From: an uncultured Bacillota bacterium
GTDB taxonomy: Bacteria > Bacillota > DTU025 > MWDF01
Assembly: GCA_963823655.1 (NCBI GenBank)
Contig: CAWGMK010000010.1
Span: forward strand, 52,311 to 116,310
Length of the DNA: 64,000 nucleotides
Direction of reading: 5' to 3'
The notes under the pieces were generated by a model, which did not search any database, was not told the DNA's origin, and saw only the letters and a program-made list of their open reading frames with translations. Positions 1 to 64,000 of this stretch are shown one piece after another (the stretch's first letter is position 1; each line of letters starts with the position of its first letter). The position numbers and the translations under genes are program-made.

Positions 1-996
1 GTGGGCACCGTGCGCCAGGGCGCCATGGCGCCATCCGGGATGGACCGGGAGCGGTCCGGGATGATGCGCTCGACGGAGAACTCCAGGCGGATGCCCAGGC
101 CGGTGCAGTCCGGGCAGGCGCCGTGGGGCGAGTTGAAGGAGAAGGAGCGCGGCTCCAGCTCGTCGATGGTCGTGCCGTCGTAGGCGCAGCTGTAGCTTCT
201 CGCTGTAGCGCTGCTCCTCGAAGGCGCCGGCGTCCGCGGGCGCCACGAGCATGACGCCCTCGCCCAGGCGCAGGGCCGTCTCCACCGAGTCGGCCAGGCG
301 CGCCGCGTCCGGATCGGGATTGGTCAGCGTCGAAGGGGCGGCCGTCAGCGTCCGCGTGGCGGACGATGAGCCGGTCGACCACGACCTCGATGCTGTGGCG
401 CTTGTACTTGTCGAGCGCGGGCGCCTCATCCAGGTCCATGAGCTCGCCGTCCACCCGGACGCGCACGAAGCCCTGGCGCCGGGCGGCGGCGAAGACGCGC
501 TCACCCTCCGTCTTGCGGTCCTTGATGAGCGGGCCGAGGACCAGGATGCGGGAGCCGTCCGGCAGGGCCCGGATGCGGTCGACGATCTGCTGCACGCTCA
601 TGCGCGCGATCTCACGGCCGCAGCTGCGGGCAGTGCGGGATGGCCGACGCGCGCGAAGAGCAGGCGCAGGTGGTCGTAGATCTCCGTCACCGTGCCCACC
701 GTGGAGCGCGGGTTGCGGCTGGCGCCCTTCTGGTCGATGGAGATGGCCGGCGAGAGCCCCTCGATGTGGTCGACGTCCGGCTTCTCCATCTGGCCCAGGA
801 ACTGGCGGGCGTAGGCGGAGAGCGACTCCACGTAGCGGCGCTGGCCCTCCGCGTAGATGGTGTCGAAGGCAAGGCTGGACTTGCCGCTGCCGGAGAGGCC
901 GGTGATGACGATCAGCCGGTCACGCGGCAGCTCCACGGTGATGTTCTTGAGGTTGTGCTCGCGCGCGCCGCGAACGATGAGCAGATCCTGGGGCAC
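1..996 (-). CDS. uvrA: Excinuclease ABC subunit A, N-terminal ~330 aa only (the 3' part lies before the window start).
   Basis: The minus-strand translation gives [63 protein letters not shown]...ISIDQK. The reverse complement of 100-183 gives [18 protein letters not shown]. There is an apparent frameshift near 640. A GTG start is at ~994-996. Confidence 0.9.
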
Positions 997-1096
997 CCTC
1001 CCAGTGTACCGCAGGCGGGGGCATTTGGAACGCGCGTTCGAAGTGCGTGTCATCGGCCGAGCCGTCCTGGTACGGCTCCCGCTGCGCGGGTGCCGC

Positions 1097-2274
1097 CTAC
1101 TGTCCTGGAGGTGCCCCCTGCCCCGGCACGGGCACCTGCCCTGCAGGCGGCACCACCTCGACCGGCACCAGCACGAGGTCCTGCGCCACGGCCTTGTCGA
1201 AGAAGAGTCGGAAGAGGTCTCGCACGATGGAGGCCACCGGCAGTGCCACGATGGCCCCGATGATGCCGCCCAGCGCGAAGCCGATGGCGATGAGCACGAG
1301 CACGGACGCGCCCGTGAAGTTGATCATCTTGCCCTCGAAGGTGGGCACCAGGATGGAGCCCTCGATGTTGAAGGCGATGAAGTAGTAGACGCTCACCAGC
1401 ACGATCGCCGCCGGCCCGGAGGCGAGGGCCAGGATGAGTGCCGGGATGTAGCTGATGATGGGGCCGATCTGCGGATCAGCTCCATGACGAACGCGACGAG
1501 CCCCAGCAGGACGGCGTACTGCATGAGCAGTGGCGAGTCGGTCAGGGCACCGATGACCAGCATGCCCAGGGTGATGATGACGAACATGATCGAGCCGACG
1601 AAGAGCTCGGCCTTGAAGTACTGGGCGACGTTGCCGACGGTGATGGTCAGGATGCGGCTGACATCGTCCCTCCACGGCTCCGGGACGCGCTCGTAGAACG
1701 TCGCGGACATGCGCGGCTGGTCCTTGAGCAGGTAGAAGAGGAAGAATGGCAGCAGGAACCAGGCGAAGAGCCCACCGAGGAAGCTCAGGGCGCTGCCGAT
1801 GATGCCACTGGCGACCGTCTCCTCGTCCACGGCCGCGGCATTGTCCTGGGCAGAGGCGATGATGGCGTCGATGGCTGAGCGCAGCTCGGGCGGCAGGTCG
1901 AGGCTTTCGTACCAGGCGCTCAGGTCCTCGAGGTAGGTCGGCAGGTTCTCCATGAAGGCGATGCCCTGCTCGACGATGATGATGACCACCGTGAACAGGA
2001 CGATGAGCGCCCCGAAGATCGTGACCGCGACGACGGCGATGGCGGCCAGCCAGCGTGGCCAGCCATGTCGCACGAGCCAGCCGACGACCGGGACGAGGAA
2101 GAACGCCAGTGCCGCGCCGACCCCGAAGACGAAGAGGGCGCTGGCCGACAGGACGAAGACGATGACGGAGAGGACGCCCAGCAGGAGAGCGATGAGGAAG
2201 GGTCGACTCGGGGCCTGGGAGGGTCGGAAGGCAGCGCGCATGCCGGGTGGCGTGGTCGCTGTCGCGGCCATCAC
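1097..2274 (-). CDS. AI-2E family transporter (PerM/UPF0118-type permease).
   Basis: It is polytopic and hydrophobic. The 1393..2274 ORF continues as [19 protein letters not shown]...[20 protein letters not shown] in the 1097..2401 frame. There is an apparent frameshift near 1440. Confidence 0.7.
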
Positions 2275-2959
2275 ACCGGTGTCCGCGCCGGCCTGCGGGG
2301 CGACGGGCTCGCTCCGCCCGACGGTGGGCTCGGCCGAGGCGGCCTCGGCCGAGGTCGCGTCGACCGGCCCGGGTGGCTCCTGGCCTCGCCGCTACGTCCA
2401 CGGGGCGAGGCTAGCACAGGCCTCAGGTCGAACGGAGCCATTCCTGCTTCCAGTGCCGGAGTCGCGAGACCACGGCGGAGTCGTCGCCCTGAAGTCACGG
2501 TCTGCGGTCCGGCGCGAGGCGTCATCGACCTCGTCATCGAGGACATGAACGAACCCGCCGTCGTCGCCTGCGAGGCACAGTCGCAGCTCCGTCGGCTCGA
2601 ACAGCAGATCCCGCTGGGCCACCATGAAGGCCGATGCTCTGGCCGAGGCCCGCGACCCCGCGGAACGTGACGACGGGGCCGCCGGTCATGCCGCCGTCTC
2701 GCGCCTGCTGCGCTGCGTTCGACCCAGGCGAATCGCCACGTCGTGACCGAGTTCCGCGAACTGCTGGCTGTGGCGTACCCGGGCGCGCTACGTGGACCTC
2801 GTCGCTGCCATCACCGGCACGGCGCCGTGGCCAGGCCCCGGCCTCTTGTGGTGCGAGGTGGATGGGCAGGGGGCGCGCATCCTCGAGCGGCCGCCGCGTG
2901 GTGTCCGCCTGGGACGATAGGGGTGCCACATCATCGAGGTGGTGGTGCCGCCGCGGTCG

Positions 2960-3220: not shown

Positions 3221-3496
3221 TCATCGGGCCCGGTCAGCGTCACCCCGGCGCCCCGCGGCTGCTTCAGCGGCGACGCTGGGCCGCGTGCCGGTCCGCTTGA
3301 TGACGTTGGGCGTGACGCGGCGGTCCCAGGTGGGTCGGTCGACCCAGCGCGCCATCCAGCCCTCGTCGAGGTCCTCGTGCGAGTCCTTGAGGCCCGGGAA
3401 GACGTCCGCGGCGGTGCCTTCGTCGATGTCCAGCGGCTCCTCGCCGGCCGGCAGGACCGTGACCGCGGTGACCTCCAGCGCCGACTCGCTCGCCAT
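3221..3496 (-). CDS. Hypothetical small acidic protein (91 aa) immediately downstream of uvrB; it may instead be a frameshifted uvrB 3' region.
   Basis: ATG-initiated [73 protein letters not shown]. Its frame stays open upstream into the uvrB tail. Confidence 0.3.
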
Positions 3497-3559
3497 CGTG
3501 GCGGTGCCCCTGCCGCTGCCCGGCCCTGCGGGCGCGCGGCCCGCTCCGAGGGGCGGGCG

Positions 3560-5630
3560 CTGGCCGTCGCCCGTCGCGCATCGGCATGCCCCGGCGGCCG
3601 CCCGCTCGGCCGCGCTTGCAGCACGGCCACCGAGGCGTCCTCCTCGAGCACCCGCCGGCGGATGTCCTGGATCTCGTCGCGCAGCGCAGCCGCCCGCTCG
3701 AACTCGAGCTGCTTGGCGGCCGAGCGCATCTCCGCCTCCAGCTGCGAGACGAGCTTCTCCACCTGAGCCTGGCTGAGCTCCGTGAGCTCCCTCGAGTCAG
3801 CGCCCGAAGGCACCCGGCGCCTGGGCCACGGCAGCGAGGCGGTCGTTGATGTCCCGGATCTCCTTGACGATGGTCGTCGGCGTGATGCCGTGCTCGATGT
3901 TGTAGGCCTCCTGGACGGCGCGGCGACGGTTCGTCTCCTCGATGGCGACCTGCATCGACTCGGTGACGCGGTCGGCGTACATGACGACCTCGCCGCCGAT
4001 GTTGCGCGCGGCACGGCCGATGACCTGGATGAGCGACCAGGCGCTGCGCAGGAAGCCCTCCTTGTCCGCGTCCAGGATGGCCACCAGCGTGACCTCCGGC
4101 AGGTCGATGCCCTCCCGCAGGAGGTTGATGCCGACCAGCACGTCGTAGACGCCCAGGCGCAGGTCGCGCAGGATCTGGACCCGCTCCAGGGTGTCCACCT
4201 CGCTGTGCAGGTAGCTGACGCGGATGCCCATCTCGTGGAGGTAGTCGGCGAGGTCCTCCGCCATGCGCTTGGTGAGCGTGGTGACGAGGACGCGCTCGTG
4301 CCGCTCCACGCGCTCCCGGATGCGGTCGATGAGGTCGTCGATCTGGCCCTCCGTGGGCCGCACCTCGATGGTCGGGTCGACGATGCCCGTGGGCCGGATG
4401 AGCTGCTCCACGATGCGCTCCGAGCGCTGCAGCTCCCACGCCCCGGGCGTGGCGCTCATGTGCACGACCTGGCCGAGGTGCGCCTCGAACTCCTCGAAGG
4501 TGAGCGGCCGATTGTCCAGCGCCGATGGCAGCCGGAAGCCGAACTCGACGAGGATCTCCTTGCGCGTGCGGTCGTTCTTGTACATGCCCGCCACCTGGGG
4601 GATGGTCATGTGGCTCTCGTCGACGACCAGCAGCCAGTCCGGCGGGAAGTAGTCGAGCAGCGTCCAGGGACGCGAGCCGGGCTCGCGGCGGGCGAGGTGG
4701 CGCGAGTAGTTCTCGATGCCGGAGCAGAAGCCCAGCTCGCGCATCATCTCCAGGTCGAAGGTGGTGCGCTGCCGGAGCCGCTCCGCCTCCAGGATCATGC
4801 CCTTCTGCTCGAGCTCCGCGACGCGCTCCTCCGCCTCCACCTCGATGTCCGCGATGGCCGCCACCAGCTTCTCCTGCGGGCGTGACGTAATGGGAGGCCG
4901 GGTAGACGTTCAGCTCCGTTGCGCTCGGCGAGGACCTCGCCGGTGAGCGGGTCGACCTCCGTGACGCGCTCCACCTCGTCACCGAAGAACTCGACCCGCG
5001 CGATGAAGTCGTCATAGGCGGGCTGCAGCTCCAGGGTGTCGCCGCGGACGCGGAACTTCGCCCGGCTGAGGGCCTGGTCGTTGCGCTGCGTACTGCAGGT
5101 CCACCAGCTGGCGCAGCACGCCGTCCCGGCGGTAGCGGCCGCCCGACGCGCAGGCGCAGGACCGTGGCGCCGTAGTCCACGGGCGCGCCGAGGCCGTAGA
5201 TGCACGAGACGCTGGCCACGATGATGACGTCGCGCCGCTCGAACAGGGCCCGCGTGGCGGCGTGGCGCAGCTTGTCGATCTCCTCGTTCCGGGAGGAGTC
5301 CTTCTCGATGTAGGTGTCGCTGCGGGGCAGGTAGGCCTCCGGCTGGTAGTAGTCGAAGTAGCTGACGAAGTACTCCACGGCGTTGTCCGGGAAGAAATCG
5401 CGGAACTCGCTGTAGAGCTGGGCCGCCAGCGTCTTGTTGTGCGCCAGCACGAGCGTGGGCTTGTTGACGCTGCGCGATGACCTCCGAGACCGTGTAGCGT
5501 CTTGCCCGTGCCGGTGGCGCCCAGGAGCACCTGGTGCTTGCGTCCGTCGCGGATGCCGGCCACGAGCTGCTCGATGGCCTGGGGCTGGTCACCCGTGGGC
5601 TTGAAGGGCGCCACCAACTGGAAGTCGGCC
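3560..5630 (-). CDS. uvrB: Excinuclease ABC subunit B; the 3' end is unresolved.
   Basis: N-terminus [45 protein letters not shown] begins at ~5630. The 4795..5640 frame has [42 protein letters not shown]. The 3264..5450 frame has [42 protein letters not shown]. The 3797..4864 ORF gives helicase domain 2. The UVR domain [43 protein letters not shown] lies at ~3620-3780. At least three frameshifts are apparent, and no in-frame stop follows the UVR domain. Confidence 0.9.
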
Positions 5631-5899
5631 ATGCCCGCATGATAGCGCCTCAAGCCCCAAACCGAACACGCGTTCATGGGCGGCCGCACCCCAGGGGCTG
5701 GCAGGAAGGTGCGGTCCGCGGTGGTCTGCCTCGGCGCGGACGGGTGCGGGGTAGAAAAGAGTCCTACCGACCCGGACCCGATGGGTCCATGGCAGGCCGA
5801 CACCCATGCACGGATGCTGGCCGATGCACGGACGGGGCCGTCACGCCCAGGCGCTGACCGTCCGGTCGCTCGCGAGCCGCGCAACAGGAGCCTGCCGCC

Positions 5900-6860: not shown

Positions 6861-7547
6861 CGGCGCTCCACCGGGCCCCACGGCAGCCCGGCGAACCTCG
6901 GCGCGAGCACATCCGCGAGTGCGTCCTCGACGCACTCGCGGATCGATTCCCGGGAGCCGGACGCGTCGATGCGCCGGTCGGCGTGGGGCGCCAGGCGCTC
7001 CGCGAGATCGGGGCCCTGCGCGGCCAGGCGTCGCTCGATGTCAGCAGCGTCCATGCCCCGGAGCGCGAGCCGCTGGCGCTGGACCCCCGCCGGGCAGTCG
7101 ATGAGCCAGACCTCGTGGCAACGCGCGGCGAGACCGCTCTCGACGAGCTTGATGGCCTCGATGACGACGAAGGGGTCGCCGTCGCGGCGGCCCGCTTCGA
7201 GGCGAGCCTCGATCGCGCGCCCGGACGGCCGGGTGGACGATGGCCTCCAGGTCGCGGAGGGCCGCGGCGTCGGCGAAGACGAGCGTCGCCAGGGCCGCCC
7301 GGTCGAGCATGCCGGGCGGCTCGGAAGACGGCCTCGCCGAAGCGCGCGTGGATGGCCTCCAGGGTCGGCTGGCCGGGCGCCGTGACCTCGCGCGCGAGCG
7401 CGTCGGCGTCGATGACGACGCCACCGAGCTCGGCCAGCATGCCCGCCACGGTGGACTTGCCGCAGCCGATGGGCCCGGTGAGCCCGATGACGACCGGCCG
7501 GTCGTCCTGGTCGCCCGTCTTCTCGATGTCCGCGACCCTCCCCTCGT

Positions 7548-7551
<4 letters not shown>
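6857..7551 (-). CDS. coaE: Dephospho-CoA kinase.
   Basis: [75 protein letters not shown], then [28 protein letters not shown] and a C-terminal ...[23 protein letters not shown] in two further frames (two frameshifts). The ATG at 7549-7551 overlaps the ABC-F stop codon (ATGA overlap). Confidence 0.8.
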
Positions 7552-9629
<2,078 letters not shown>

Positions 9630-9682
9630 GTACCTAAGTGTCCCCGATTCGGCGGCGCCGACGTGGGGGCGCGTGGCCCTGG

Positions 9683-10671
9683 TCAGTCGGCCGGGTCCGG
9701 CCCTCCCAGGTCCGACCAGTTGCGGCCCCGACGTCCCACCTGCCGCGCGCTGGCCGCCAGCGCAGCGGTCGTGCCACGGCGGTCAGCCGCCGGCAGGCGC
9801 TGGCACCACGAGCAGAAGTGGGTGCCGCGCTGAGCCAGCACGAGGCGCCGGATGGGCCGCCCGCACCGATGACAGGGCAGCCCCGTGCGCTGGTAGACGT
9901 CGAGGTGCTCCTGCATCCGGCCGTCACCCTCCGGCGCGGTGTAGTCGTCGACCGACGAGCCGCGCCGCGCCACGGCCTCGCCGAGCACGCCCCGGATGGC
10001 ATCGTAGAGGCGGCGCTCGTCGGCCGGCCCCAGCGTCCCCACCGAGCGCAGCGGGTGGAGGCGCGCACGCCAGAGGGCCTCGTCGGCGTAGATGTTGCCC
10101 ACGCCCGCCAGGAACGACTGGTCCACGATGACCGACTTGAGCCGCCCCCGGCGGGCACGCAGGCGGGCCCGGAAGCGGCGCAGCGTGAAGGCTTCGTCCA
10201 GCGGCTCCGGCCCATGCCGAGCGAAGAGTCCGCCCACGTCCCCGGCGCCCACGACCTCGCCGTCGGGGCCGCGCCGGTAGAGCCCCACCCGGCCGAACTT
10301 GCGCACGTCGCGGAAGAGCAGCCAGCGCGGCACCATCGGTCCGGCCGCCGCCGGCCACCGGACCCGGCCCGAGCGTCAGCCGCAGGTGCACGTGGCGGTC
10401 GTGCCGCGTGCCCTCCGGCAGCACGAAGAGCTGGCCGGTCATCTTGACCTGGATGGCCAGCACGGACCCGTCATCGAGGTCGATGACGAGCCACTTGGCG
10501 CGCCGCGTGACACCCCGGCACGCGTGCGGCCCACGAGGCCCTCGCGGAAGCTCTCGGGCGACGGGTGGCGGATGACCGGTCGCCAGTCCCACCAGACGCC
10601 GGTGATGGTGGCCCCGACGAGAGTGGCGCGAGGTCGCGCGCCATCGTCTCGACCTCGGGCAGCTCCGGCAT
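9683..10671 (-). CDS. mutM: Formamidopyrimidine-DNA glycosylase.
   Basis: N-terminus MPELPEVETMARDLAP (10471..10671 frame). The middle part AIQVKMTGQLFVLPEGTRHDRHVHLRLTLG is in another frame. C-terminal H2TH and zinc finger: SVIVDQSFLAGVGNIYADEALWRARLHP...YQRTGLPCHRCGRPIRRLVLAQRGTHFCSWCQ. There are at least two frameshifts. Confidence 0.8.
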
Positions 10672-13633: not shown

Positions 13634-13747
13634 GAGCCGTTCCACTGCCCGCGAGTGTAGCCCTCGGCCGGGGCCCGCCCGAGGGTCCGCGCCGCCCGTG
13701 GGTGCCAACGCCCGGCGGCCCGACGGCCGGCGAGCCGTGGATCGCAG

Positions 13748-14775: not shown

Positions 14776-14789
14776 AGCCACGGAAGAGT

Positions 14790-15358: not shown

Positions 15359-15367
15359 CATCCCCGC

Positions 15368-28540: not shown

Positions 28541-28552
28541 CGGCCGAGGCCT

Positions 28553-42759: not shown

Positions 42760-43016
42760 CGACGCTGGTGGATGATGACAGACGGAGCGAACCGTACCAA
42801 GAAAGCCCCGCACGGTTCGCTGCTGGCGCGAGACGATACTCGAGCCACGGCGCTTTCCGCACCGGGCCTGATAGTCCACCGGAGCCGTAGTACTTTCCCG
42901 AGCCCGCGGTCCGCGACGCCTCAGGCCCTCCACCGAGGCCCCGAAAAGCCGACGGCCGGGTCCCTGGTGGGAGCCCGGCCGTCGGGAGTGTCGCGATGGA
43001 TGCTGGCTAGATCTCG

Positions 43017-50940: not shown

Positions 50941-51157
50941 CTCGTCGAATCGGCCTGGGCACGACCATCACGTGGACTGCGTCCAGGGTCGTCGTGCACC
51001 CTCCGCGAGGCGCCGGACGGGCTGCGTGCCGGGACCTTCCGGGGGCACCGGCGACCCGCTACGATGGCGCCGTGCCCGACCCATCGTGTGCTGCTGGGGG
51101 GCGAAGACCTGAGCGGGTGAGGCGCCGTTGCGCCAGCCCGACACAGAGGAGGAGTGC

Positions 51158-52309
51158 ATGCGCAGGTTCACCACCGCATCCCTCGCGCTGACCATCGCGG
51201 CGACCGGCATCCTGGCCGGCGCGCTCGCGGTGGCGGCGCAGGACGGATCCGACCTCAAGATCGGCCTCGTGACGGACGTCGGCACGATCGACGACCGCAA
51301 CTTCAACCAGTACTCGTGGGAAGGCGCCGTCGCTGGCGCGGAGGCCGTCGGGGCTGCCGGAGCCGCAGTACGCCATCAGCGCGCAGTCGGCTGACATCGG
51401 CCCGAACATCCAGGCCTTCGTGGACCAGGGCTACGACGTCATCGTGACGGTCGGCTTCGCGGCCGGCGCGGACACCATCAACGCCGCCCTGGCCAACCCG
51501 GACATCAGGTTCATCGGCGTGGACCAGGCCCCCTGCATCAACGAGGACGGCACACCCGGACGACAGCTTCACCTGCGCCGGCGACCCGGCCGCGCTCCTG
51601 CCGAACCTCCAGGGCATCAACTGGCGCGAGCAGCAGCCCGGCTACCTGGCCGGCATCGTGGCCGCCTCCGTCAGCGAGACGCGGCCACATCGCCGCCGTC
51701 GGCGGCACGGCCGTCATCCCGGCCGTCGTCAACTACATCGAGGGCTACGCCAACGGCGCCAAGTCCATCAACCCTGATGCCGTCGTGACGGTGGTCTACG
51801 TGTCCGGCGCGCCCGGACACGGCGGCCTTCAATGACCCGGCCGGCGGCCAGTCCACCGCCCAGCAGCTGCTGGCCCAGGACCCGACATCGACGTCATGTT
51901 CCAGGTCGCCGGCAAGACCGGCAACGGCGTCCTCCAGGCCGCCTGCGACGCGGGCATCTACGGCATCGGCGTGGACGTCGACCAGTTCCTCTCCACCCCG
52001 GAGACGGCCGCCTGCACGATCGTCAGCGCCGAGAAGAAGCTGACCAAGAACGTCGCCGACGCCATCGAGCGCATCGCGGCCGGCACGGACCAGGGCGGCA
52101 TCCTGCGCCTGGGCATCGACACCCAGGACGTGGGCCTCTCGCCCTTCCATGACTTCGAGAGCCTCATCACCCCTGAGACCGCTGACACGCTTGACGCTGC
52201 CGAAGCGGCGCTGGCCGACGGCTCGCTCAAGGCCTGCGAGGAGCAAGAGGGCAGCGGCGTTCTGCGTGCAGACGCTGCCGTAGACGACGCCCTTCCAGGA
52301 GTCACCTGA
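51158..52309 (+). CDS. BMP-family (Med/PnrA-like) ABC transporter substrate-binding lipoprotein.
   Basis: MRRFTTASLALTIAATGILAGALAVAAQDGSDLKIGLVTDVGTIDDRNFNQYSWEGAVAGAEAVG. Then GYDVIVTVGFAAGADTINAALANPDIRFIGVDQAP. Then MFQVAGKTGNGVLQAACDAGIYGIGVDVDQFLSTPETAACTIVSAEKKLTKNVADAIERIAAGT in further frames. There are at least two frameshifts. Confidence 0.7.
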
Positions 52310-52387
52310 GTCCTTGTCGAACGGGCCGACCCCCAGGGCCGGCCCGTTCGAGTACCCGAGGCAGGAGAGCATGGGAAGCCCCGCGAC

Positions 52388-53990
52388 GTGACCGCGCTGG
52401 ACACCACCCTGACGCCCGAGCGCATCAGCGCGCCGGCGCTCGAGATGCGCGGCATCACCAAGCGCTACCCGGGCGTCGTCGCCAACGACGGCATCGACCT
52501 CGACGTGCGGCCCGGCGAGATCCACGCCCTGCTCGGCGAGAACGGCGCCGGCAAGACGACGCTCATGAACGTCCTCTACGGCCTGGCCACGCCGGACGCG
52601 GGCGAGATCCTGCTCGACGGGCAGGCCGTCGAGATCGCCGGCCCATCGGACGCCATCGACCGCGGCATCAGCATGGTCCACCAGCACTTCATGCTCGTGC
52701 CCGGTCCTGACCGTGGCCGACAACATCCTGCTCGGCGAGGAGGCCATGCGCGGACCGCGTCTTCCTCGACCAGCAGCGAGGCGCGCCGGCGCATCCGCGA
52801 GCTGGGCGAGCGCTTCGGCTTCGAGATCGACCCCGACGCAGAAGGTCGGCGAGCTGTCGGTCGGCTGGCAGCAGCGGGTGGAGATCCTCAAGGCGCTCTA
52901 CCGCGATGCGCGCATCCTGGTCCTCGACGAGCCGACGGCCGTCCTGACGCCGCAGGAGACCGACGAGATCTTCGGCGTCCTGCGGCGGCTGGCCGCCGAG
53001 GGCCACAGCATCATCTTCATCAGCCACAAGCTCTACGAGGTGCTGGAGATCGCCGACCGCATCACGGTCATCCGGCGCGGCAAGGTGGTCGGCAGTCGCA
53101 TCCCGAGCCGAGACGAACGAGGACGACCTGGCCGAGCTGATGGTCGGCCGCGAGGTCCAGCTGACCGTCGACCGCGGCGCAGAGCCATCCGGGCGAGGTC
53201 ATGCTCGCAGGTCGGCGGACCTGCGCGTGCCGCGACGACCGCGGCCGCGAGGTCGTCGATGGCGTCAGCTTCGAGGTGCGCGCGGGCGAGATCCTGGGCA
53301 TCGCCGGCGTCGCCGGCAACGGCCAGGACGAGCTGGTCGAGGCCATCACGGGCCTGCGCCAGCCGCACCGGCGGCACGGTCACGCTCGGCGGCGAGGACG
53401 TCACGCAGGCGATGGCCCGCGGGCCCTGCACGGGCAGGACGTCGCCTTCGTGCCCGGCCGACCGCCAGCGCTTCGGCCTGGTGCTCTCCTTCCCCATCGC
53501 CGACAACCTCGTCCTGACCGACTACTACGCGGCGCCCTACTCGCACGGGCATCGTCCGCGACGAGGCGGCCATCCTGGAACGCGCCGAGCGAGGCGATCG
53601 CGGAGTACGACGTCCGGACGCCGTCGTGCGACCGTCAACGCCGGGACGCTCTCCGGCGGCAACCAGCAGAAGGTCATCGTGGCCCGCGAGTTCGACCGCG
53701 ACCTGCAAGCTGCTCGTGCTCGACCAGCCGACGCGCGGCCTGGACGTGGGCAGCATCGAGTTCATCCACCAGCAGGTCATCGCCAAGCGCGATGCGGGCA
53801 CGGCCGTCCTGCTCGTCTCCGCGGAGCTGGACGAGGTCCTGGAGCTCTCCGACCGCATCGCGGTCATGTACCGCGGCGGATCGTGGCGGTCGTGGACGGT
53901 CGCACCGCCAACAAGGAGGAGGTCGGCCTGCTGATGGCGACCGGGGGCCGGAGCGAGGCGCCAGACGAGACCGGAGCCACAGGCCGATGA
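52388..53990 (+). CDS. ABC transporter ATP-binding protein with two fused NBDs (nucleoside/sugar-type).
   Basis: NBD1 [48 protein letters not shown]...[15 protein letters not shown]...[18 protein letters not shown]2 [20 protein letters not shown]...[15 protein letters not shown]...[27 protein letters not shown] start at 52388. There are several frameshifts. Confidence 0.8.
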
Positions 53991-55156
53991 GCCCCGACGA
54001 GAAGCCCATGAGCACCATCGATCGGCTCCTGAGCCGATCGCTGCGGGGCCAGCTGGCCGTGACGGGCGGCGCCATCGTCCTGGCCCTCGTCGTCGGCGCG
54101 GTGCTCATGATCCTGACCAGCCCCATCATCACTGGCAGCCTCGACCCATGGCTCTGGGCAGAGGCCTACCTGGCGCTGGTCGCAGGGCGCACTGCTGAGC
54201 TCGAGCGGCCTGATCGACACGCTCGTCCGCGCCACGCCGCTCATCCTGGCGGGCCTCTCCGTGGGCCTCGGCTTCAAGGCCGGCCTGTTCAACATCGGCG
54301 CCCAGGGCCAGTTCCTCATGGGCGCCCTGGGCAGCGTCGCGGCTGGCATCGCCCTCGCGCGACGCGCCGTCCATCGTCGCCATCCCGCTCGCCCTCCTGG
54401 CCGGCGTGGCGGCGGGCGCGGCCTATGGCTTCATCCCGGGCTGCCTCAAGGCGTTCACCGGCGCCCACGAGGTGGTCATCACCATCATGCTCAACTACAT
54501 CGCCCTCCAGATCGTCTCGTGGGCGGTCAGCGAGCCGCTCCGGGCCCGCGGCGCCACGTTCGCGCGGACGACGACGTCGGCGAGGCCGGCATCCCGGTCC
54601 TGATCGGCACACGGGCACAGCTGCATCTGGCGTGCTCATCGCGCTGGCCGCCGTGCCCATCGTCTGGTGGCTCCTGTACCGCACCACGCTCGGCTTCGAG
54701 ATCCGCACCGTGGGCGCCAACCCGGATGCGGCGCGCTACGCCGGCATGCGCCCGCGCCTGATCATCGTGCTCACGATGACGCTGCGCGGCCTGCTGGCCG
54801 GCCTGGCCGGCGCCATCGAGATCCTGGGCGTGCACGGACTACATGCCGGCCGCCTACGCCACCACGGTCGGCTTCGACGCCATCGCCGTGGCGCTGCTGG
54901 GCCGCGCCAACCCGTGGGGCATCCTGCTCGGCGGCCTGCTCTTCGGCGCCCTGCGCGCCGGCGCCCCGCTCATGCAGATCCAGGCCGGCGTCCCCGTCGA
55001 GATGATCGACATCCTGCAGGGCGTCATCCTGTTCTTCCTGGCCGCCGACCTCATCGTGCGCTGGGTCTTCCGGCTGCGCGAGACGCGGGGCGGCAGTGTC
55101 GACGAGCTGCAGACCGTGACCAGCAGCTACGGCGGTCGACCGCCACGCGGGGCTAG
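53987..55156 (+). CDS. ABC transporter permease (BMP-system permease 1).
   Basis: [46 protein letters not shown]... It continues in shifted frames with [29 protein letters not shown]..., [19 protein letters not shown] and ends [36 protein letters not shown]. Its ATG overlaps the ATPase stop. Confidence 0.65.
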
Positions 55157-55161
55157 GCGCT

Positions 55162-56242
55162 AGCGTGGACGTCCTCTTCGACATCCCGGTCGTCGGGCTC
55201 TTCTTCCAGCTCGTCGACTACCTCATCGTCGTCCTGCCATCGACTGGCGCCGATCATCCTGGCCGCTCGCGGCGCCCATCGCCCTGGGCGCCTGTGCGGC
55301 CTCATGAACGAGCGCTCCGGCGTCGTCAACATCGGCATCGAGGGCATGATGCTCACGGCCGCCTTCGTCGGCTGGTTCGCGGCCTCGCTGGTCGTGCAGG
55401 TCTTCCCTGACCAGCCCAAGGCCGACTTCGCCTTCGGCGCCACGCCGGCGCTGCTCGTCGGGCTCGCTGGCCGCCCTGCTGACCGGGATGGCCGTCTCCG
55501 CGATCCACGCCTGGCTGTCCATCACCGTCCGGGCCGACCAGATCATCAGCGGCACGATCATCAACATCGTGGCCTTCGGCATCACCGGCTACCTGAATCA
55601 TCATCATCAGCGCGCTCGTCCCCGCCATCGGCCGGCAAGTTCGCACCGTTCGTGCCGCCCGCGTGGCTCACCGACCTGCCCTTCGTCGGCTGGCTCTTCG
55701 ACATGTTCCTCAGCCAGGGGCCGATCGCGATGTCTGTCCTGCTGCTCGCCGTCGTGCTGCAGGTGCTGCTCTTCCGGTCGCGCTGGGGCCTGCGCACCCG
55801 GGCCGTGGGCGAGCACCCGAAGGCCGCCGAGACGGTCGGCATCGACGTCATCCGGCTGCGCTACCGCAACGTCATCCTGGGCGGCGTCTTCGCGGGCCTG
55901 GCGGGCGCCTGGTTCACCCTGGAGCTTCGGCACCAACGTTCCAGACCGGCATGACCGGCGGGCGCGGCTTCATCGCCCTGGCGGCGCTCATCTTCGGCCG
56001 CTGGACGCCGCTGGGCTCGTTCGGCGCAGCGCTCCTGTTCGCGGCCGCCGGATCGCTCGAGCATCGCCATCCGCACCGTGCCGCCGACCGGCCAGCTGGG
56101 CGAGATCCTGACCGCGATCCCGGACCAGTTCTGGTCCGCCCTGCCCTACCTCGTGACCATCATCGTCCTGGCCGGGGTCGTGGGCCGCAGCGTGGCTCCG
56201 GCAGCGGTGGGCAAACCCTACGAGCGAGAGAGTGCCTCGTAG
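55162..56242 (+). CDS. ABC transporter permease (BMP-system permease 2).
   Basis: [25 protein letters not shown]... It continues with [34 protein letters not shown], ...[18 protein letters not shown], ...[16 protein letters not shown] and ...[37 protein letters not shown] across frames. The stop is TAG at 56240-56242. Confidence 0.65.
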
Positions 56243-56650
56243 CCCGGACGAGCCGGAGCAGGCCGGGGCAGGGCCGGTCGTGACGCCGGTCCCCGTCCTT
56301 GACGCGGAGGGTGCGCGAGCGGTCCTGCGGGCGGCGCGGCGGATCGCGGTCGTGGGCGCCTCGCCCTACCCGTGGCGCGCTTCCAACGTCGTCATGGCGT
56401 ACCTGCTCGAGCAGGACTACGAGTGCGTGCCCGTCAACCCAGAGGCTGCCAGCGTCCTGGGCCAACCCTGCTTCCCGACGCTGGAGGCGGCGGTCGCGGC
56501 CGGCGACGGTCGCCCCTTCGACATCGTGGACGTCTTTCGCCGGGCCGAGCACGCACCGGATATCGCTCGCTCGGCGGGCGTTGACGATGGCGGCGCCGGC
56601 CACGGTGGAGGTGGGTGCGACGCGCGTCGCGAAGCCATCCACCTCGACGG
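56232..56650 (+). CDS. CoA-binding domain protein (YccU/CoA_binding_2-like); the 3' end is uncertain.
   Basis: [93 protein letters not shown]. It converges on, and may overlap, the SIS gene's 3' end. Confidence 0.55.
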
Positions 56651-57188
56651 CGGCATCGCCCACGGCGCCGCCGTTGTCGATGGCCACGTCCACGAGCTCG
56701 TGGAGCCCGGCGGCCCCGGGTCCCGCGCCGAGCCGGACGACGCGTGGCGCAGGCTGGTGATGGCGATGGTCCGCACCCCGGCCTCGCTCGCCGCGCGCGC
56801 CATCTCGCGGCTGACCGCGTTGCTGCCCGAGTTGGACGCGATGAGCAGCACATCACCGGGCGCCATGGCGTGGTCCGCGGCCAGCGCAGCGGCGAGCCCG
56901 GGCAGCCGCTCCAGGGCCGTGCTGAGCGCCGTGCTCCCGTGAAGCGTCAGGCCCTCGAACAGGATGGCCGGACCCGGACCAGGCCGCCGGCGCGGTGGAA
57001 CAGCTCCTCCCGCGATGATGGCGAGTGCCCGAACCGAAGCTGTGGATGGTCCCGCCGGCGGCGAGCGCATCGGCCATCAGCGAAGCCGCCGCGTCAATTC
57101 GCGGCCACTCCTCGGTGCCGAGGCGGGCGACGAGCTCCTCCGCGATCCGGAGGTAGCGCTGGCCGGCGGACGCACGCTCGCTCGTCAT
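56560..57188 (-). CDS. SIS (sugar isomerase) domain protein, GmhA-like.
   Basis: MTSERASAGQRYLRIAEELVARLGTEEWPRIDAAASLMADALAAGGTIHSFGSG. Then ALERLPGLAAALAADHAMAPGDVLLIASNSGSNAVSREMARAASEAGVRTIAITSL. Then [40 protein letters not shown] in shifted frames. The ATG (rc of cat at 57186-57188) abuts the GC-content break at 57189. Confidence 0.6.
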
Positions 57189-57189
57189 A

Positions 57190-60100
57190 ATACGGGTAAT
57201 GTGGCCCTAGATATTACACTGTCTGATGCCCTTGATGGCATGACGCCCATTAATCCGCTTCCTATAATCCTGACAATTGGTCCTAGCGGAAATTCCTTGG
57301 ATATAATCAATATCACCTATTCCAGGCCATGGTCTCCAGGTCAGCATCACAACATCGCGACAGTGACTACTCAATACGCGGGGGCGACTGCTCAAGACGA
57401 TGCCTACTATTTCGGCATCATGCCCACCATTGAGATTGTCAAGGACGGCGCGTGGGTAGATGGCAATGCAGATGGACACCCTGATGCGGGAGAGCTCATA
57501 AACTATACATTTACCCTCTCCAACACAAGCAATGTTGATCTGCACATTGTTACAGTAACCGATCCACTGTTAACTGTTCATGGCGGTCCTATCACGCTAC
57601 ATATGGGAGAAACGAACTCGACAACATTCACCGGTTCGTATGTGATAACCCAGGCGGACATTGAAGCAGGCTTCGTTTACAACATAGCGACAGCGGATTC
57701 AGTTGAATCTCCTCCGGCTACCAGCGAAAAGACAGTCTTGCTGCCGCAGTATCCAGCGCTGTCGATTATAAAGAACGGCTTCTGGATCGATGACAACGAT
57801 GATGGAAACGCTGATCCGGGTGATCTGCTCAACTACTTCTTCACCGTAACTAACATAGGGAACGTTGCGCTCCACAATGTTGTGGTCACAGATCCTAAGG
57901 TGGTAGAAGTGGGCGGGCCTACGACACTGGATGTCGGCGAGGCGGACTCGACCACATTCATGGGCTCGTATGCGATAACCCAAGCCGACATCGATGCCGG
58001 TTTCGTGTACAACATCGCCACCGCTGACTCCACTGAATCGCCTGCTGCCACCGGCGAAGAGACGGTCGCGCTACCTCAATACCCTCTGCTTTCGATAGTG
58101 AAGAACGGAGTTTGGGTGGATGGCGACGCGAACGGAAAAGCTGACCCAGGAGAGCTCGTCAATTACACCTTCACGGTAACTAACGTAGGCAATCTAACAC
58201 TCCACAATGTGACGGTTACGGATCCTAAGATCACAGAGGTGGGTGGGCCTACGACTCTGGATGTCGGTGAGGTTGACTCAACCACGTTTACCGGTTCGTA
58301 TTCGATAACCCAGGCGGATATAGACGCCGGCTTCGTATACAACATCGCAACTGCAGACTCAACTGAGTCACCTGCAGCCACAGGTGAAAAGACTGTCATG
58401 TTGCCACAAAATCCGCTGCTTTCGATAGTGAAGAATGGCGCTTGGGCAGACGGCAACGCAGACGGCAACGCAGACCCGGGAGAGCTCATCAACTATACAT
58501 TTGTAGTCACAAACCTCGGGAATGTGACGCTTCATAATGTTACAGTCACAGATCCCAAGATTATTGAAGTGGGCGGGCCGACCATCCTGGCAGTCGGCGA
58601 GGCAGACTCGAGCACATTCTCCGGCTCATATGCAATCACCCAGGAGGATATAGACGCCGGCATCGTCTACAACATCGCCACAGCGGACTCTACTGAATCG
58701 GGTGCCGCCAATGGCGAGAAGACCGTAACGTTGCCACAATACCCGCTGCTTTCGATAGTGAAGAACGGCACCTGGGTTGATGGCAACGCTGATGGCAATG
58801 CCGATCCCGGAGAGCTGATCAACTACACCTTCACGTTAACGAACACCGGTAATGTGACGCTTCATAATGTGACCGTTACGGATATAAGGATTACGGAACT
58901 GGGCGGGCCTACGACCCTGGATGTCGGAGAGGTTGATTTCGACCACATTTACTGGTTCGTATGCAATAACCCAGGCGGACATCAACGCCGGCTTCGTATA
59001 CAACATCGCCACCGCTGACTCCACTGAGTCGCCTGCCGCTACCGGCGAAAAGACAGTCGCACTGCCTCAATACCCACTGCTATCGATAGTGAAGAACGGA
59101 ACTTGGGTGGATGGCGACGCGAACGGCAATGCAGACCCAGGAGAGCTCATCAACTACACATTCATAGTCACCAATCTCGGGAATGTAACTCTTCACAATG
59201 TAACTGTCACGGATCCGAAGATCGTAGAAGTGGGCGGGCCTACGACACTGGATGTCGGCGAGGCTGACTCGACCACATTCACAGGCTCGTATGCGATAAC
59301 CCAGGCGGACATCGACGCCGGCTTCGTGCACAACATCGCAACAGCTGACTCCACTGAGTCGCCTGCTGCTACCGGCGAGAAGACGGTCACGCTGCCTCAG
59401 TACCCAAGGCTTTCAATAGTGAAGAATGGCGCTTGGGTTGATGGCAACGCTGACGGCAATGCCGACCCCGGTGAGCTCATCAATTACACCTTCACGGTAA
59501 CGAACATAGGAAACGTGACGCTCCACAATGTAACTGTCACGGATCCTAAGATCACTGAAGTGGGCGGGCCTACGACCCTGGATGTCGGCGAGGCTGACTC
59601 GACCACATTTACAGGTTCGAATGCGATAACCCAGGCGGACATCGACGCCGGTTTCGTTTACAACATCGCAACAGCGGACTCCACTGAGTCGCCTGCTGCT
59701 ACCGGCGAGAAGACCGTCACGCTGCCGCAATCACCAGCCCTGACTTTATTGAAGAATGGTGCTTGGGTTGATGGCAACGCGGACGGCAACGCTGATCCTG
59801 GAGAGCTGATCAATTACACCTTCACGGTAACGAACATAGGAAATGTGACACTTCACAACGTGACCGTCACAGATCCTAAGATCGTTGAAGTGGGAGGGCC
59901 TACTACACTGGATGTCGGCGAGGCAGACTCGACCACATTTACAGGCTCATATGCGATAACCCAAGCAGACATAGACGCGGGCTTCGTCTACAACAACGCT
60001 GTAGCCGATTCGAACGAATTCGAATTCCACGAATGGAAATAAGACCGTAACGCTGCCACAGTACCCGCTGCTTTCGATAGTGAAGAACGGCGCTTGGGTT

Positions 60101-63100
60101 GATGGCAACGCGGATGGCAACGCAGACCCCGGAGAGCTCATCAACTATACATTCATAGTCACGAACCTCGGGAATGTGACGCTTCATAATGTGACAGTCA
60201 CAGATCCTAAGATTGTAGAAGTGGGCGGGCCTACGACCCTGGATGTTGGCGAGGCAGACAATCGCCACATTCACAGGTTCGTATGCGATAACCCAGGCGG
60301 ACATCGACGCCGGCTTCGTATACAATATCGCAACAGCTGACTCCACTGAGTCGCCTGCTGCTACGGCGAGAAGACCGTCACGCTGCCTCAGTACCCAAGG
60401 CTTTCAATAGTGAAGAATGGCGCTTGGGCTGACGGCAACGCTGACGGCAATGCGGACCCCGGTGAGTTAATCAATTACACCTTCACAGTAACGAACATAG
60501 GAAACGTGACGCTTCACAATGTAACAGTCACAGATCCTAAGATCGTTGAAGTGGGCGGGCCTACGACCTTGGATGTCGGCGAGGCAGACTCTAGCACATT
60601 TACCGGTTCATATGCGATAACCCAGGCAGACATCGACGCAGGCTTCGTATACAATATCGCAACAGCTGACTCGACTGAGTCGCCTGCCGCCAATGGCGAG
60701 AAGTACGTCACACTGCCGCAGTACCCGCTGCTTTCTATAGTGAAGGACGGAGCTTGGGTTGATGGCAACGCAGACGGCAATGCAGACCCAGGAGAACTTA
60801 TTAATTACACCTTCGTAGTAACGAATGAGGGGAATGTGACACTTCACAATGTGAGAGTCACAGATGCAAAAATTGTGGAAGTGGGAGGGCCTATCACTCT
60901 GGATGTCGGCGAGTCTGACTCGAGCACATTCACCGGTTCGTATTCGATAACCCAGGCGGACATAGACGCGGGCATGGTATTTAACAGGGCAACAGCTGAT
61001 TTGGACGAGTCGCATTCCACAAATAGCGAGATTACAATCCCGTTGCCGCAGTACCCGCACATGAGCATTAACAAGACCGCACTTGAGACATCAGTCAGCA
61101 CGCCTGGTTTGATCCACTACAATGTGGTTCTTACAAATGACGGCAATATCACCCTAAATGGAATTACGCTTGCCGATACCCTAGTTGCTAATCCCGGGGC
61201 GAAAGTTGAATTGCAGACGGCCAACGATCAGCTAAACGTTGGCGAGACGTGGACCTGGACATATACATACTTTGTCAATCAGGCCGCAATCAACCTGGGG
61301 GACAGCATAGTAAACACGGCGACGGCCAGCTACTATTTCCAGCAGCTGGAGCCCGTTAGCGACAGCGTAACGGTAAGCATAATCCAAAACCCCGCATGGA
61401 GCCTTGATAAGACCGTGCTGGAGACCGAAATAAGCTCTCCGGGTGATTTGCATTACACAGTAGTGCTAAGTAACGACGGGAATGTCGACCTTACCGGTAT
61501 AGTCCTGGTGGATACGCTGGTCGCAAATCCAGGAGCACCCGTAGAATTGCTATCAAGCAACGGCATCTTGAATGTAGGGGAGACATGGACCTGGTCCTAT
61601 ACCTATTACGTAGACCAGGCGGCTATAAACCTCGGACAGTCTATCACCAACGGGGCAAGCGCAACATGTGCACAGTTGCAAACGCTTCCCGCAGGGGATG
61701 AGATTGCAGTGACCATTCTGCAAAACCCCGCATGGAGCATCGATAAGACGGCATCCGAGGAAACGGTGGGCGCACCAGGCGATTTGCACTACACGGTCGT
61801 TCTAAGCAACGACGGAAATATCGACCTGACGGGGATAACCCTGGTTGACACATTGGTGCCTGATCCGGGCCTGCCTGTAGAATCGCTTTCAAGCAACGGC
61901 ATCCTGAATGTGGGCGAGACGTGGACCTGGAGCTACATTTACACCGTAGGCTGGGATGCTCTCTACCTCGGTGACGATGTAGAAAACACAGCGACCGCAA
62001 ACAGCGACCAGCTGGAAGGCTATCCTGTCTCAAGCGGGTTCTCCGTGGTAGTAATCCAGGATCCGAACTGGCAGCCGGGACTTGAGATCACAAAAGAAGC
62101 AACCCCCGGCTCCGCAGCAGTGGGCGACATAGTCACATACCGGGTCAGCATCTTTAACGACAGCGAATTGCCCTCACCTATGACTGCTTACGATGTAGTC
62201 CTGGTAGACGACCTGCCAGACGGCTTCAGTTATATTGCAGGCACATCACACCTGGATGGGGTGCTTATCGCCGACCCGATAGTGTCGGGTTCAGAGGTAT
62301 CGTGGCCCATAGGGGACATAGAGATGGAAGAGGGCCACGTACTGACCTATAAAGTTGGAATAGGCGCTGGAGCGCTCAATGGGGATGGCATCAACTACGT
62401 AACCGCAATCGGTATTGGCGAAGCCAGCTTCCCGTTCGAGATAGGTCCCGCCTCAGCTCAAGTAATAATAACCGGACCCGCGTTCTCATCGCATGGGGCC
62501 ATCTTAGGCAAGGTGTTCCATGATAAGGATGCGGACGGTATGCAGGACAAGGACGAACCGGGCATTGCAAACGCCGAAGTGATCATGGACGATGGCATGA
62601 GCGCTCGCACCGATGAAGAGGGCCAGTACCATATCGGCCAGGTTAAGCCCGGAGTGCGTTCCATTAAGCTCAATCTGGGATCCCTGCCGGCAGGGTCGAC
62701 GCTCACAAACAGCTTCAAGGATGTAACGGGCATATCGGCATCGTTCTTCGTAGATGTGCTGCCATCAGGAGTGGCAAGGGCCGACTTCGCAGTAGGCATG
62801 CCCAGTCAGGCGAAGGAGCCTGTAGGAAGGCCGGGTGGCTCAGAGCCGCTAATCATAACAGGGACAATCGAGCTTACCCACAACGTGAGCGGTTTCGACG
62901 GCTCCTATATAAGGGCCAGGGCGTTCCTGATGAAGAGGTTCGAGGGAGGCTCCCTGGTGCTTAGGTACGATATGCAGCAGGGCATTGCGGACGGATTGTA
63001 TTCGGACGCGTCGGATGATCCGATGTACAGCCTGTACGGCGATGGCTCGGGCACAACGAACCTCGCCCCGTCATCAAGCCCGTTCTATGCGAAGCTTGAT

Positions 63101-64000
63101 TCGAAGTACTTCGACATCGCATGGAGCGACTTCCAGCCCGCGTTCGAGTCGGTCGAGCTGGCAAGCTTCATGACCAAGATGACGGGAGGCCAGGCTTCAA
63201 TAAAAGTAGGAGGCTTCTCGCTAGAAGGCTTCGTAGCCCCCACAAGGGCAGGCATGCAGACCGACAGGATAGCAGGAAACGGCACCTCGGGATACTTCTT
63301 CCTGGATGACTACCCTGTAGTAACGGGCAGCGAGACAATCTACGTAATCCGTACGAGGTTCTACGATGAAAGCATAATACTCGACAGGAAGCTTCTCATT
63401 CGCAACCTGGACTACAAGATCGATTACTCGACAGGCTCCATACTGCTCACAGACGCCATGCCGTCATACGATGAGGAGGGCAACAAGTACTTCCTCGAAG
63501 TGACATACTCGATTACGGGCGGCGATTACGACGGGCTTGCGGCAGGCATCAGGGCGCATGCGGACTTTGGGGCCTTCGACCTTGGGGCGACTACCGCGAT
63601 AAGCAACAAGAGCGGTGGAGTCAGTACGGTAGTAGGGGCGGATATGGGCCTCGACTTCGGCGAGGCGTTCACCTTCGACGCAGAAGGCGCAGTATCCTTC
63701 GCCTCAGGGATATATGGAGGATATGCCGTAAAGGCAGGCGCCGCATCCAGGATAGGCAAGGTCGAACTGAGAGTAGAAGCAGGAGCGAGCGACGGAGGCT
63801 TCGTAAAGCCGGGTGAGACGGCCACAATGCCAAGGCAGATCACTCTGTACGGCTCGGCCGGAATTGATCCTGCTGAAGCGCTCATACTGTCGCTTACCAG
63901 CAATAATGCCTGGAAGGGTCTGGACTACAGCTTCAGCAGCGAAAACAAGCTGACAGCTGGATACAAGCTGCCTTTGAAGTTCGGCGTGGCGCTAGGCATG
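57190..64000 (+). CDS. Partial, low-GC giant repeat surface protein: DUF11/DUF7507-type ITQADIDAG repeats, further conserved-repeat domains, an SdrD-B/Cna-B-like module and a large C-terminal region. It has no start codon at the 5' boundary and runs off the window end.
   Basis: ~10 tandem 114-aa units ITQADIDAGFVYNIATADSTESPAATGEKTVTLPQYPLLSIVKNGTWVDGNADGNADPGELINYTFTVTN.GNVTLHNVTVTDPKI.EVGGPTTLDVGEADSTTFTGSYA. Then ...PAWSIDKTASEETVGAPGDLHYTVVLSNDGNIDLTGITLVDTLV...GETWTWSYTY repeats. Then GKVFHDKDADGMQDKDEPGIANAEVIMDDGMSARTDEEGQYHIGQVKPG. The frame is open to 64000. There are frameshifts near 58930, 60010, 60260 and 60365. Confidence 0.6.
57640..60990. repeat. Tandem array of ~10 near-identical 342-bp (114-codon) coding repeats in the low-GC segment.
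   Basis: Recurring DNA blocks ...ataacccaggcggacatcgacgccggcttcgt(a/g)tacaacatcgc(a/c)ac(a/c)gc(t/g)gactc(c/a)actga(a/g)tc(a/g)cctgc... with 342-bp period. Six-frame ORFs on both strands repeat accordingly. Confidence 0.85.

Follow-up and report, generated by a model that had tools for sequence, protein, structure and literature searches.

Gene content and frame breaks of the window

The window analysed here, a stretch of DNA 64,000 nucleotides in length, has a GC content of 71% and was treated in the analysis as belonging to the Limnocylindria (Chloroflexota). Nearly every gene in it is broken by single-nucleotide indels that change the reading frame, with approximately 150 events over the 64 kb in a tally across several methods. 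The GC3 phase switches every 0.3–1.5 kb along the window, and GC3 periodicity is kept in all of the resulting fragments. Events were counted gene by gene using frameshift-aware protein-to-DNA alignment. The long ORFs of contig_16511 (L001/L083), which is from the same species and shares 97.8% nucleotide identity with the window, served as the frame reference for other genes as well as for dnaE.

At the left end, the in-window part of uvrA (3..1041, minus strand; the gene runs off the end) contains four one-base insertions at approximately 638, 622, 322 and 194. Once corrected, it is 96–97% identical to the L089 and L090 proteins in frameshift-aware alignment and matches Pfam UvrA_inter. An AI-2E family transporter (1151..2364, minus strand) has one break near 1473 in the reference-free model; the corrected product covers positions 5–323 of 327 in PF01594 (AI-2E_transport), and the uncorrected fragment corresponds to part of a related NCBIfam profile. 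The uvrB gene (3278..5840, minus strand) holds approximately 12 insertions (5704, 5496, 5471, 5143, 5088, 4916, 4879, 3804, 3613, where 2 nt are inserted, 3585, 3533 and 3487), and its public gene call on the window's contig is a 355-residue fragment, P0037. Breaks near 7220 and 7320 interrupt coaE (approximately 6875–7596). The ABC-F ATPase gene together with the end of coaE (7478..9782, minus strand) carries at least four insertions (9298, 7884, approximately 7805 and 7738); this span is the one aligned to the stop-to-stop frame of the relative, and outgroup ABC-F matches stop near 9629. Aligned to the intact 319-residue fpg of L082, from the same species, fpg (9686..10644, minus strand) shows four events (a deletion at 10621, then 10524, 10517 and 10327).

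Fifteen events, 14 insertions and one deletion, fall in polA (10681..13747, minus strand), whose corrected product agrees at 980 of 1018 residues with a long intact frame of L083, where the gene call is a protein of 981 residues. A 336-residue gene of unknown function adjoining the sigma factor (13751..14773, minus strand) has eight events. The ECF sigma factor itself (14777..15275, minus strand) is altered by one insertion (14818/14819). The sequence-only reading had used this gene as its worked example, and it was exactly right: the relative reads ...VKSRIHRGRVSLRERLGPAMELFRG*, and the window copy has one extra base on the coding strand, CAGC[G]CTG. The corrected product is identical at 164 of 166 residues to the L083 protein, which finishes ...HRGRVSLRERLGPAMELFRG*. 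Two neighbouring genes are clean, namely corA (15371..16429, minus strand; identical at 352 of 353 residues, with no event) and a REC-like gene of 127 residues (17516..17896, plus strand), which is identical across several assemblies. Without correction, the NCBIfam match of corA is complete, and those of uvrB (249–598 of 653), dnaE (267–906 of 1146) and fpg (93–266 of 269) are partial.

Further along, an AAC(3)-type acetyltransferase gene (Pfam Antibiotic_NAT; 18100..18920, minus strand) lacks one base at 18285 and a RibD_C-domain gene (18979..19641, plus strand) has one extra base at 19367. The P-type ATPase gene (19659..22312, plus strand) contains at least five insertions (21367, 22046, 22161, 22249 and 22271), and its corrected product is identical to the relative at 869 of 882 residues. 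With 16 events, dnaE (24482..28735, minus strand) is corrected to a protein with 1378 of 1414 residues identical to the same-species relative. The stretch 29896..32329 (plus strand) forms one 810-codon open frame in the relative and is interrupted by 14 events in the window, ten of which lie between 30077 and 30696; the L088 copy of this stretch is annotated with a Glyco_hydro_25 gene. A zinc-type alcohol dehydrogenase gene (32374..33717, minus strand) is clean.

In the right-hand part, a giant surface-repeat gene (43010..48747, minus strand) has at least six breaks, and its counterpart on the L082 contig is called as 2013 residues with SpaA and CLIPPER domains. An M14 carboxypeptidase gene (49177..50247, plus strand) has three breaks and covers positions 2–285 of 286 in PF00246 once corrected. 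The densest stretch of breaks in the window, with approximately 30, is a set of ABC transporter genes (51146..56240, plus strand) encoding a Bmp-family binding protein, a double ATPase and two permeases, which after correction give full Bmp, ABC_tran and BPD_transp_2 matches. A SIS-domain gene (56544..57188, minus strand) with three breaks gives a corrected match to PF13580 (SIS_2) over 2–138 of 138. The last gene is a giant gene of lower GC content made up of 330-nt repeats (56943..64000, plus strand), which runs off the right end; it has four indels, near 58.94, 60.0, 60.26 and 60.35 kb. The tandem repeat acts as an internal ruler, since its spacing becomes 331, 332 and 329 nt precisely at frame breaks. 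Two of the breaks occupy an identical place in the repeat unit.

A reference-free frameshift detector returned 1.6 events per kb for the window, compared with 0.14–0.47 per kb for clean relatives, Illumina MAGs among them. The detector fuses adjoining same-strand genes, scores some gene boundaries as shifts and recovers 40–66%, depending on the penalty, of the events known from the same-species ORF comparison, and its totals (104–110) are therefore rough. Pervasive frameshifts that include essential genes had been proposed from sequence inspection at a density of about one per kb. The frameshifts are real and were understated: dnaE, polA and uvrB have 16, 15 and approximately 12 events, respectively, and the density measured is approximately 2.4–4.4 per kb, three to four times the earlier figure. 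Single-base indels relative to two other assemblies each were found at six of the seven sites that had been flagged (622/638, 9298, 14819, 18285, 19367 and 27717/27726/27741). The seventh, near 1440, is not covered by that comparison, the window being unaligned to L089 or L090 from approximately 1018 to 2470; the nearest event is that of the reference-free detector at 1473. As had been noted, corA, the REC-like gene and the XRE regulator read cleanly, and so does most of the HD-GYP gene, but these are not the only clean stretches: the alcohol dehydrogenase gene and the last 3.65 kb of the window (60350–64000, within the 330-nt-repeat gene) are also free of breaks.

Comparison with same-species assemblies

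The window was compared with two other, independent assemblies of its species, each approximately 98% identical to it. From 7.6 to 37.7 kb these two share one reading against the window at 132 indel columns, or 4.4 per kb, where the window has 93 extra and 39 missing bases. One example is dnaE, which in contig_16511 is one intact ORF of 1347 residues with no frameshift relative to three outgroup proteins; the window copy needs 11–16 frame changes. Removal of the indels gives back full-length conserved proteins with full Pfam matches. Over 8,138 aligned codons, the corrected window proteins are 97.5% identical in amino-acid sequence to the intact ORFs of the same species, with 77 frameshift events and one in-frame stop. 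The indels thus exist and almost all of them are private to the window's contig, and wherever tested the genes beneath them proved intact.

The substitutions that part the window from its relatives follow the original frame. Of 241 coding substitutions that separate it from both relatives, 168 (70%) are synonymous and 73 are non-synonymous; 172 lie at codon position 3, with 34 and 35 at positions 1 and 2. Selection has therefore acted in the true frame.

Some indels call for a separate reading. Clusters at 35560–35590, 28960 and 30420–30700 fall within divergent segments, where they may reflect true differences between strains. Insertions near 5473 and 11256 (two of approximately 50) are shared with L089, a different error-rich contig; as random independent errors seldom coincide, either part of the error process is systematic or both insertions are real. 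For 43.5–64 kb, a search with an ABC-ATPase fragment for a same-species reference returned nothing closer than 75% full-length identity, and the calls in that part rest on the reference-free model, the Pfam checks and the repeat spacing.

Character of the extra and missing bases

The homopolymer context that the sequence-only reading had expected at the inferred shifts is mostly absent. Among the 93 private extra bases, 74 (80%) extend no run, the typical case being a C placed between two Gs. An inserted C is flanked by G at −1 in 56% and at +1 in 62% of cases, against a background of 36%, so that G[C]G is favoured, which reads C[G]C from the opposite strand. The isolated deletions lean towards runs, with five of nine in runs of three or more bases. 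A homopolymer origin is thus ruled out for the insertions and is partly true of the deletions. On the plus strand 47 inserted C and 31 inserted G bases were counted, an asymmetry that is not significant (p = 0.09). G[C]G and GC[A]GC are candidate motifs for systematic insertion.

Placement along the window is uneven: counted in 1-kb bins, the indels have a variance-to-mean ratio of 4, which indicates clustering. Their density is weakly related to GC content within 8–37 kb (Spearman 0.32, p = 0.09), and the repeat gene, at 54–59% GC, has far fewer events (approximately 0.6 per kb). The emission of both alleles of a SNP side by side was considered as the main cause and rejected, a mismatch being present within 3 nt of seven of 43 isolated insertions (16%) against a background of 8%.

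The usual source of real indels is replication slippage in repeats, which gives run extensions. Since the extra bases mostly lie outside runs, theirs is not a mutational pattern. The pattern also departs from the classical Nanopore signature, in which indels are concentrated in homopolymer runs and which published descriptions of Nanopore consensus error emphasize (PMC9262707): extra bases outnumber missing ones, most of them extend no run and G[C]G is the preferred context. The class of artefact still fits, and its subtype, insertion-dominated and homopolymer-avoiding, is unusual. Insertion-dominated breaks occur at other positions in other loci of the Microflora Danica catalogue (L005, L028, L089 and L015), in which polA, dnaE, fpg and RibD_C are also split in the gene calls; the Illumina MAGs of the same order are without them.

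Origin of the frame breaks

Taken together, the data indicate that the frames were broken by errors in the consensus of one public long-read metagenome contig and not by mutation in the organism, the same genes being intact in other assemblies of the species. We assign this reading a probability of approximately 0.93. That the indels are an error signature rather than biology had been the central proposal of the sequence-only reading, and it held up in all of the tests run. The closest relatives are Nanopore-only Flye and Medaka assemblies from Microflora Danica, a catalogue built from Nanopore data only, with Flye assembly and one round of Medaka polishing (PMC12313526); the same group states that bins below approximately 40-fold coverage still require short-read polishing (PMC9262707). 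From these relatives we infer that a Nanopore-only platform and low coverage were the cause. The contig would then belong to an assembly made from Nanopore reads alone and at low coverage, in which the consensus step may have left non-templated single bases, most often a surplus C or G in GC-rich surroundings, and would have dropped bases less often than it added them. Each stray base shifts the frame, and gene callers therefore split real genes into fragments.

Similar errors are documented in long-read (Nanopore or PacBio) assemblies, where single-base indels private to one assembly split real genes and the shortened proteins enter public databases, as the UvrB fragment of the window has done; in published work such indels are tied to coverage and are removed by polishing (PMC9262707, PMC12007338). 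The rate in the window, approximately 4 per kb, is high for a deposited genome.

It is possible, although we consider it unlikely, that the error process is partly systematic, with base modification or the sequence context of high-GC Limnocylindria genomes leading the Nanopore basecaller or polisher to insert a non-templated base. The two insertions common to two independent contigs point this way, as do the two breaks at an identical position of the 330-nt repeat unit and the same insertion bias in other Microflora Danica assemblies of the order. If present, such an artefact would point to a modification motif or to a blind spot of the model, with effects on many deposited soil MAGs.

A mixed-strain consensus, in which reads of co-occurring strains were collapsed and both alleles emitted or mis-joined, would place the cause in strain mixing and not in coverage as such. 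The sample assembly ERZ25039596 does hold two contigs for the region, one clean and one error-rich, the indels are clustered, their counts in 1-kb bins seem by eye to follow SNP density, and several uvrB insertions resemble paired alleles, as in GACG[C]TAC, a site with G or C in the relatives. However, the enrichment of mismatches beside isolated insertions is weak and most insertions lie at sites where all relatives agree, which makes strain mixing a very improbable main cause.

Genuine genome decay, with the frameshifts as real pseudogenizing mutations and gene loss as in reductive evolution, is more improbable still. Decay of the Mycobacterium leprae type resembles the window in its many frameshifted genes, and the affected majority of genes, the 2–4 events per kb and the two insertions in common with another contig could be read in its favour. 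In such genomes, however, essential replication genes are spared, breaks are common to related strains, and stop codons, larger deletions and relaxed selection accompany them; none of these hallmarks was seen in the window. The breaks fall repeatedly in dnaE, polA and uvrB, and a replicative polymerase is not losable; they are not inherited by the close relatives, nearly all being private; and a single in-frame stop beside 77 frameshifts, the high identity of the corrected proteins and the synonymous excess do not indicate relaxed selection. The GC3 periodicity kept in every fragment and the scarcity of run extensions among the extra bases also argue against decay.

Correction of the frame in the cell, by programmed frameshifting, transcriptional slippage or other recoding, has a negligible probability: a one-base shift at each break does suffice for a full-length homologous protein, as in prfB and dnaX, but programmed sites of that kind are single, conserved in relatives and on slippery motifs, whereas those of the window number tens per 10 kb, with as many as 16 in a single gene, mostly lack even a short run and are nearly all missing from the closest relatives where tested, and no recoding system is known to operate at such density.

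Consequences for the record

If consensus error is the origin, the breaks have no biological importance, since the organism itself carries ordinary, intact genes. The provisional status that had been advised for gene calls in the window is warranted, all ORF boundaries and pseudogene calls being unreliable, and any finding in it that rests on a split or shortened gene or on a 'missing domain' should be discounted. As most extra bases lie outside runs, error checks confined to homopolymers may miss errors of this type in high-GC long-read MAGs. NCBI and ENA list the truncated proteins of the window itself on a single contig of 508,948 bp, and fragments such as the 355-residue 'UvrB' are already in public protein collections.

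Composition and reference sequences

The G+C content of the window is 69% overall, 70–74% up to ~36 kb and 54–59% in the last 8 kb. A search with a dnaE fragment placed the window in the Chloroflexota, class Limnocylindria, with MAG MFD09848.bin.1.119 as the top match. Its contig_16511 (stretch L001) is 97.8% identical to the window over positions 15500–37708, and the two therefore represent the same species. A second stretch of contig_16511 (L083) was used as a further reference, and a second same-species reference was provided by contig_28754 of ERZ25039462 (stretches L082 and L088), which derives from another sample and covers window 7.6–43.5 kb. Two contigs that are ~92% identical to the window (L089 and L090) span its 1–14 kb. 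Positions 1018–2470, which contain the AI-2E transporter gene, are unaligned to these two contigs despite alignment of uvrA and uvrB on either side, and may represent a local difference in gene content between populations.

Frame breaks in the window

At such high G+C content the GC3 phase is a marker of the coding frame, and along the window this phase flips every 0.3–1.5 kb. The cleanest fragments match partial NCBIfam profiles (uvrB, 249–598 of 653; dnaE, 267–906 of 1146; fpg, 93–266 of 269), and corA matches a complete profile. Frameshifts were counted using a purpose-written protein-to-DNA aligner that permits them. Against three outgroup DnaE proteins the window dnaE requires 11–12 shifts and that of L001, a single 1347-residue ORF, requires none. 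When long L001 ORFs were taken as the reference, window 15.5–37.7 kb (~18 kb coding) showed 50 frame-breaking events, comprising 35 insertions and 12 deletions of one base and three insertions of two bases. Alignment to the relatives gave 15 events in polA, ~12 in uvrB, four in the first 1 kb of uvrA, four in fpg, at least four in the ABC-F gene, eight in the gene adjoining the sigma factor and one each in AAC(3), RibD_C and the ECF sigma factor. Summed by hand, the per-gene counts total ~150 events in 64 kb.

The phase switching, partial profiles and alignments agree that the frame changes described in the sequence-only reading are real. Six of the seven positions that it flagged are one-base indels relative to two other assemblies; for the seventh (~1440) the evidence is a reference-free model and Pfam. 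Its ECF sigma example proved exact: the protein of the relative ends in HRGRVSLRERLGPAMELFRG followed by a stop, and the coding strand of the window has a single additional base (CAGC[G]CTG). The genes that it listed as clean (corA, the XRE regulator and the REC-like gene) are so, as is most of the HD-GYP gene, of which it named the C-terminal part; the ADH gene and 60.35–64.0 kb are clean as well.

In window 7.6–37.7 kb there are 132 indel columns (93 extra and 39 missing bases) at which two independent same-species assemblies agree with each other and differ from the window, a density of 4.4 per kb; the earlier estimate of ~1 per kb was therefore three to four times too low. These private indels are clustered (variance-to-mean ratio of 4 per kb bin). 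The homopolymer context that had been predicted is mostly absent, as 74 of the 93 extra bases match neither neighbour. The typical event is a C set between Gs, with G at −1 in 56% and at +1 in 62% of cases (background 36%). Isolated deletions lean towards runs, with five of nine in runs of three or more. Hot spots occur at 30077–30696 (10 events in 620 nt) and 52400–56240, the ABC transporter genes (~25 events in 4 kb); neighbouring genes, 1–1.3 kb long, have zero events.

Regions lacking a same-species reference were analysed using a codon-usage Viterbi model with frameshift states. For the window the model called 104–110 events (1.6 per kb), and for clean relatives, Illumina MAGs included, 0.14–0.47 per kb. 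Of the events established against same-species references it finds just 40–66%, and it therefore undercounts. The corrected translations span the breaks with complete Pfam domains: AI-2E_transport (profile positions 5–323 of 327), Peptidase_M14 (2–285 of 286), Bmp (6–276 of 301), ABC_tran, BPD_transp_2 (2–268 and 23–269 of 269) and SIS_2 (2–138 of 138). In the repeat gene of lower GC that runs to the right end, the units are spaced by exactly 330 nt save for spacings of 331, 332 and 329 nt, which coincide precisely with changes of open frame; two of the breaks in this gene lie at an identical position within the repeat unit.

Error or biology

We consider it very likely (a probability of a little over 90%) that the frame breaks are a sequence artefact, namely consensus errors in a long-read contig, rather than biology. 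The indels are almost all private to the window; in the relatives these genes form long open frames, and the occasional breaks of the relatives themselves lie at other positions. Across 8138 codons aligned to intact same-species ORFs there are 77 frameshifts and one in-frame stop, and the corrected proteins are 97.5% identical to their orthologues. The lone stop is probably genuine, since its reading frame spans two adjacent genes. Real pseudogenes with so many frameshifts would be expected to carry nonsense and missense changes too. The window is a distinct strain, set apart from both relatives at 287 sites. Coding sequence accounts for 241 of these, 172 of them at codon position 3; synonymous changes outnumber non-synonymous ones by 168 to 73 in an unrooted comparison, such that some changes may lie on the shared branch of the relatives. 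The excess of third-position and synonymous changes shows that selection acted in the true frame. Furthermore, replication slippage does not yield an inserted base that matches neither neighbour, and essential genes carry many breaks. Together, these observations argue for an artefact.

Some indel clusters fall in divergent segments (35560–35590, ~28960 and 30420–30700) and may be real differences between strains. A consensus effect of mixed strains as the origin of the indels is weak at best, the signal in the test (16% against a background of 8%) being slight if present.

With the two corrections to rate and context, the interpretation as error stands, and every gene coordinate and pseudogene call in the window is to be taken as provisional. 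The window has the same one-base insertions at ~5473 and ~11256 as L089, which is from the assembly of another sample, and cleaner relatives lack them. Such exact coincidences, like the shared repeat-unit position, are unlikely for independent random errors, and hint that part of the error process may be context-specific and systematic.

In ERZ25039596 the polA–fpg–ABC-F region is present on two contigs, the nearly clean contig_16511 (L083) and the error-rich contig_11117 (L089), which differ in gene order beyond uvrB. This difference suggests co-occurring strains, and two strains with different coverage would fit the contrast in quality.

Likely source of the errors

NCBI and ENA list the exact proteins of the window, including a 355-residue UvrB fragment, as encoded by a single 508 948 bp contig. 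The closest relatives belong to the Microflora Danica long-read catalogue, as indicated by their contig ('contig_N') and MAG ('MFD...bin...') names. Genomes in this catalogue come from Nanopore reads alone, with Flye as the assembler and a single round of Medaka polishing (PMC12313526); according to the same group, short-read polishing is still needed for bins with less than ~40-fold coverage (PMC9262707). The frameshift problem extends beyond the contig of the window to other Microflora Danica loci of the same order. Insertion-dominated breaks at other positions occur at 1.4 per kb in L005, 1.3 in L028 and 1.2 in L089; polA, dnaE, fpg and RibD_C are split in the gene calls of those assemblies; and Illumina MAGs of the order show background calls only. 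Raised, insertion-dominated calls (0.6–1.4 per kb) were seen in L005, L010, L015, L028, L082, L088 and L089.

Other features of the window

Among the sites in 7600–27900 at which the window departs from both same-species relatives, 166 have G or C in the window and A or T in the relatives, and just 20 show the opposite; most are third codon positions. The comparison is unrooted, and the change may lie in either lineage. The private changes of L083 run in the opposite direction (50 GC>AT and nine AT>GC).

The sole RNA gene found is a tRNA-Leu(CAA) at 17203–17288 (− strand). Just downstream on the same strand, within the stretch 16577–17288 that also includes the tRNA gene, is a 184-residue ORF with zero Pfam matches, containing the sequence LLGLYLGDG, which we take to resemble the LAGLIDADG homing-endonuclease motif.

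Three giant repeat-built genes resembling surface-protein genes occupy 37135–48747 (− strand) and 56943–64000 (+ strand). The first two carry CLIPPER and SpaA Pfam domains in the gene calls of the same-species contig, and the third lies where the G+C content falls to 54–59%. Their tandem arrays comprise five 357 nt units at 99% identity (44811–46605), 2.3 units of 378 nt and ten 330 nt units at 79% identity (57616–60999).
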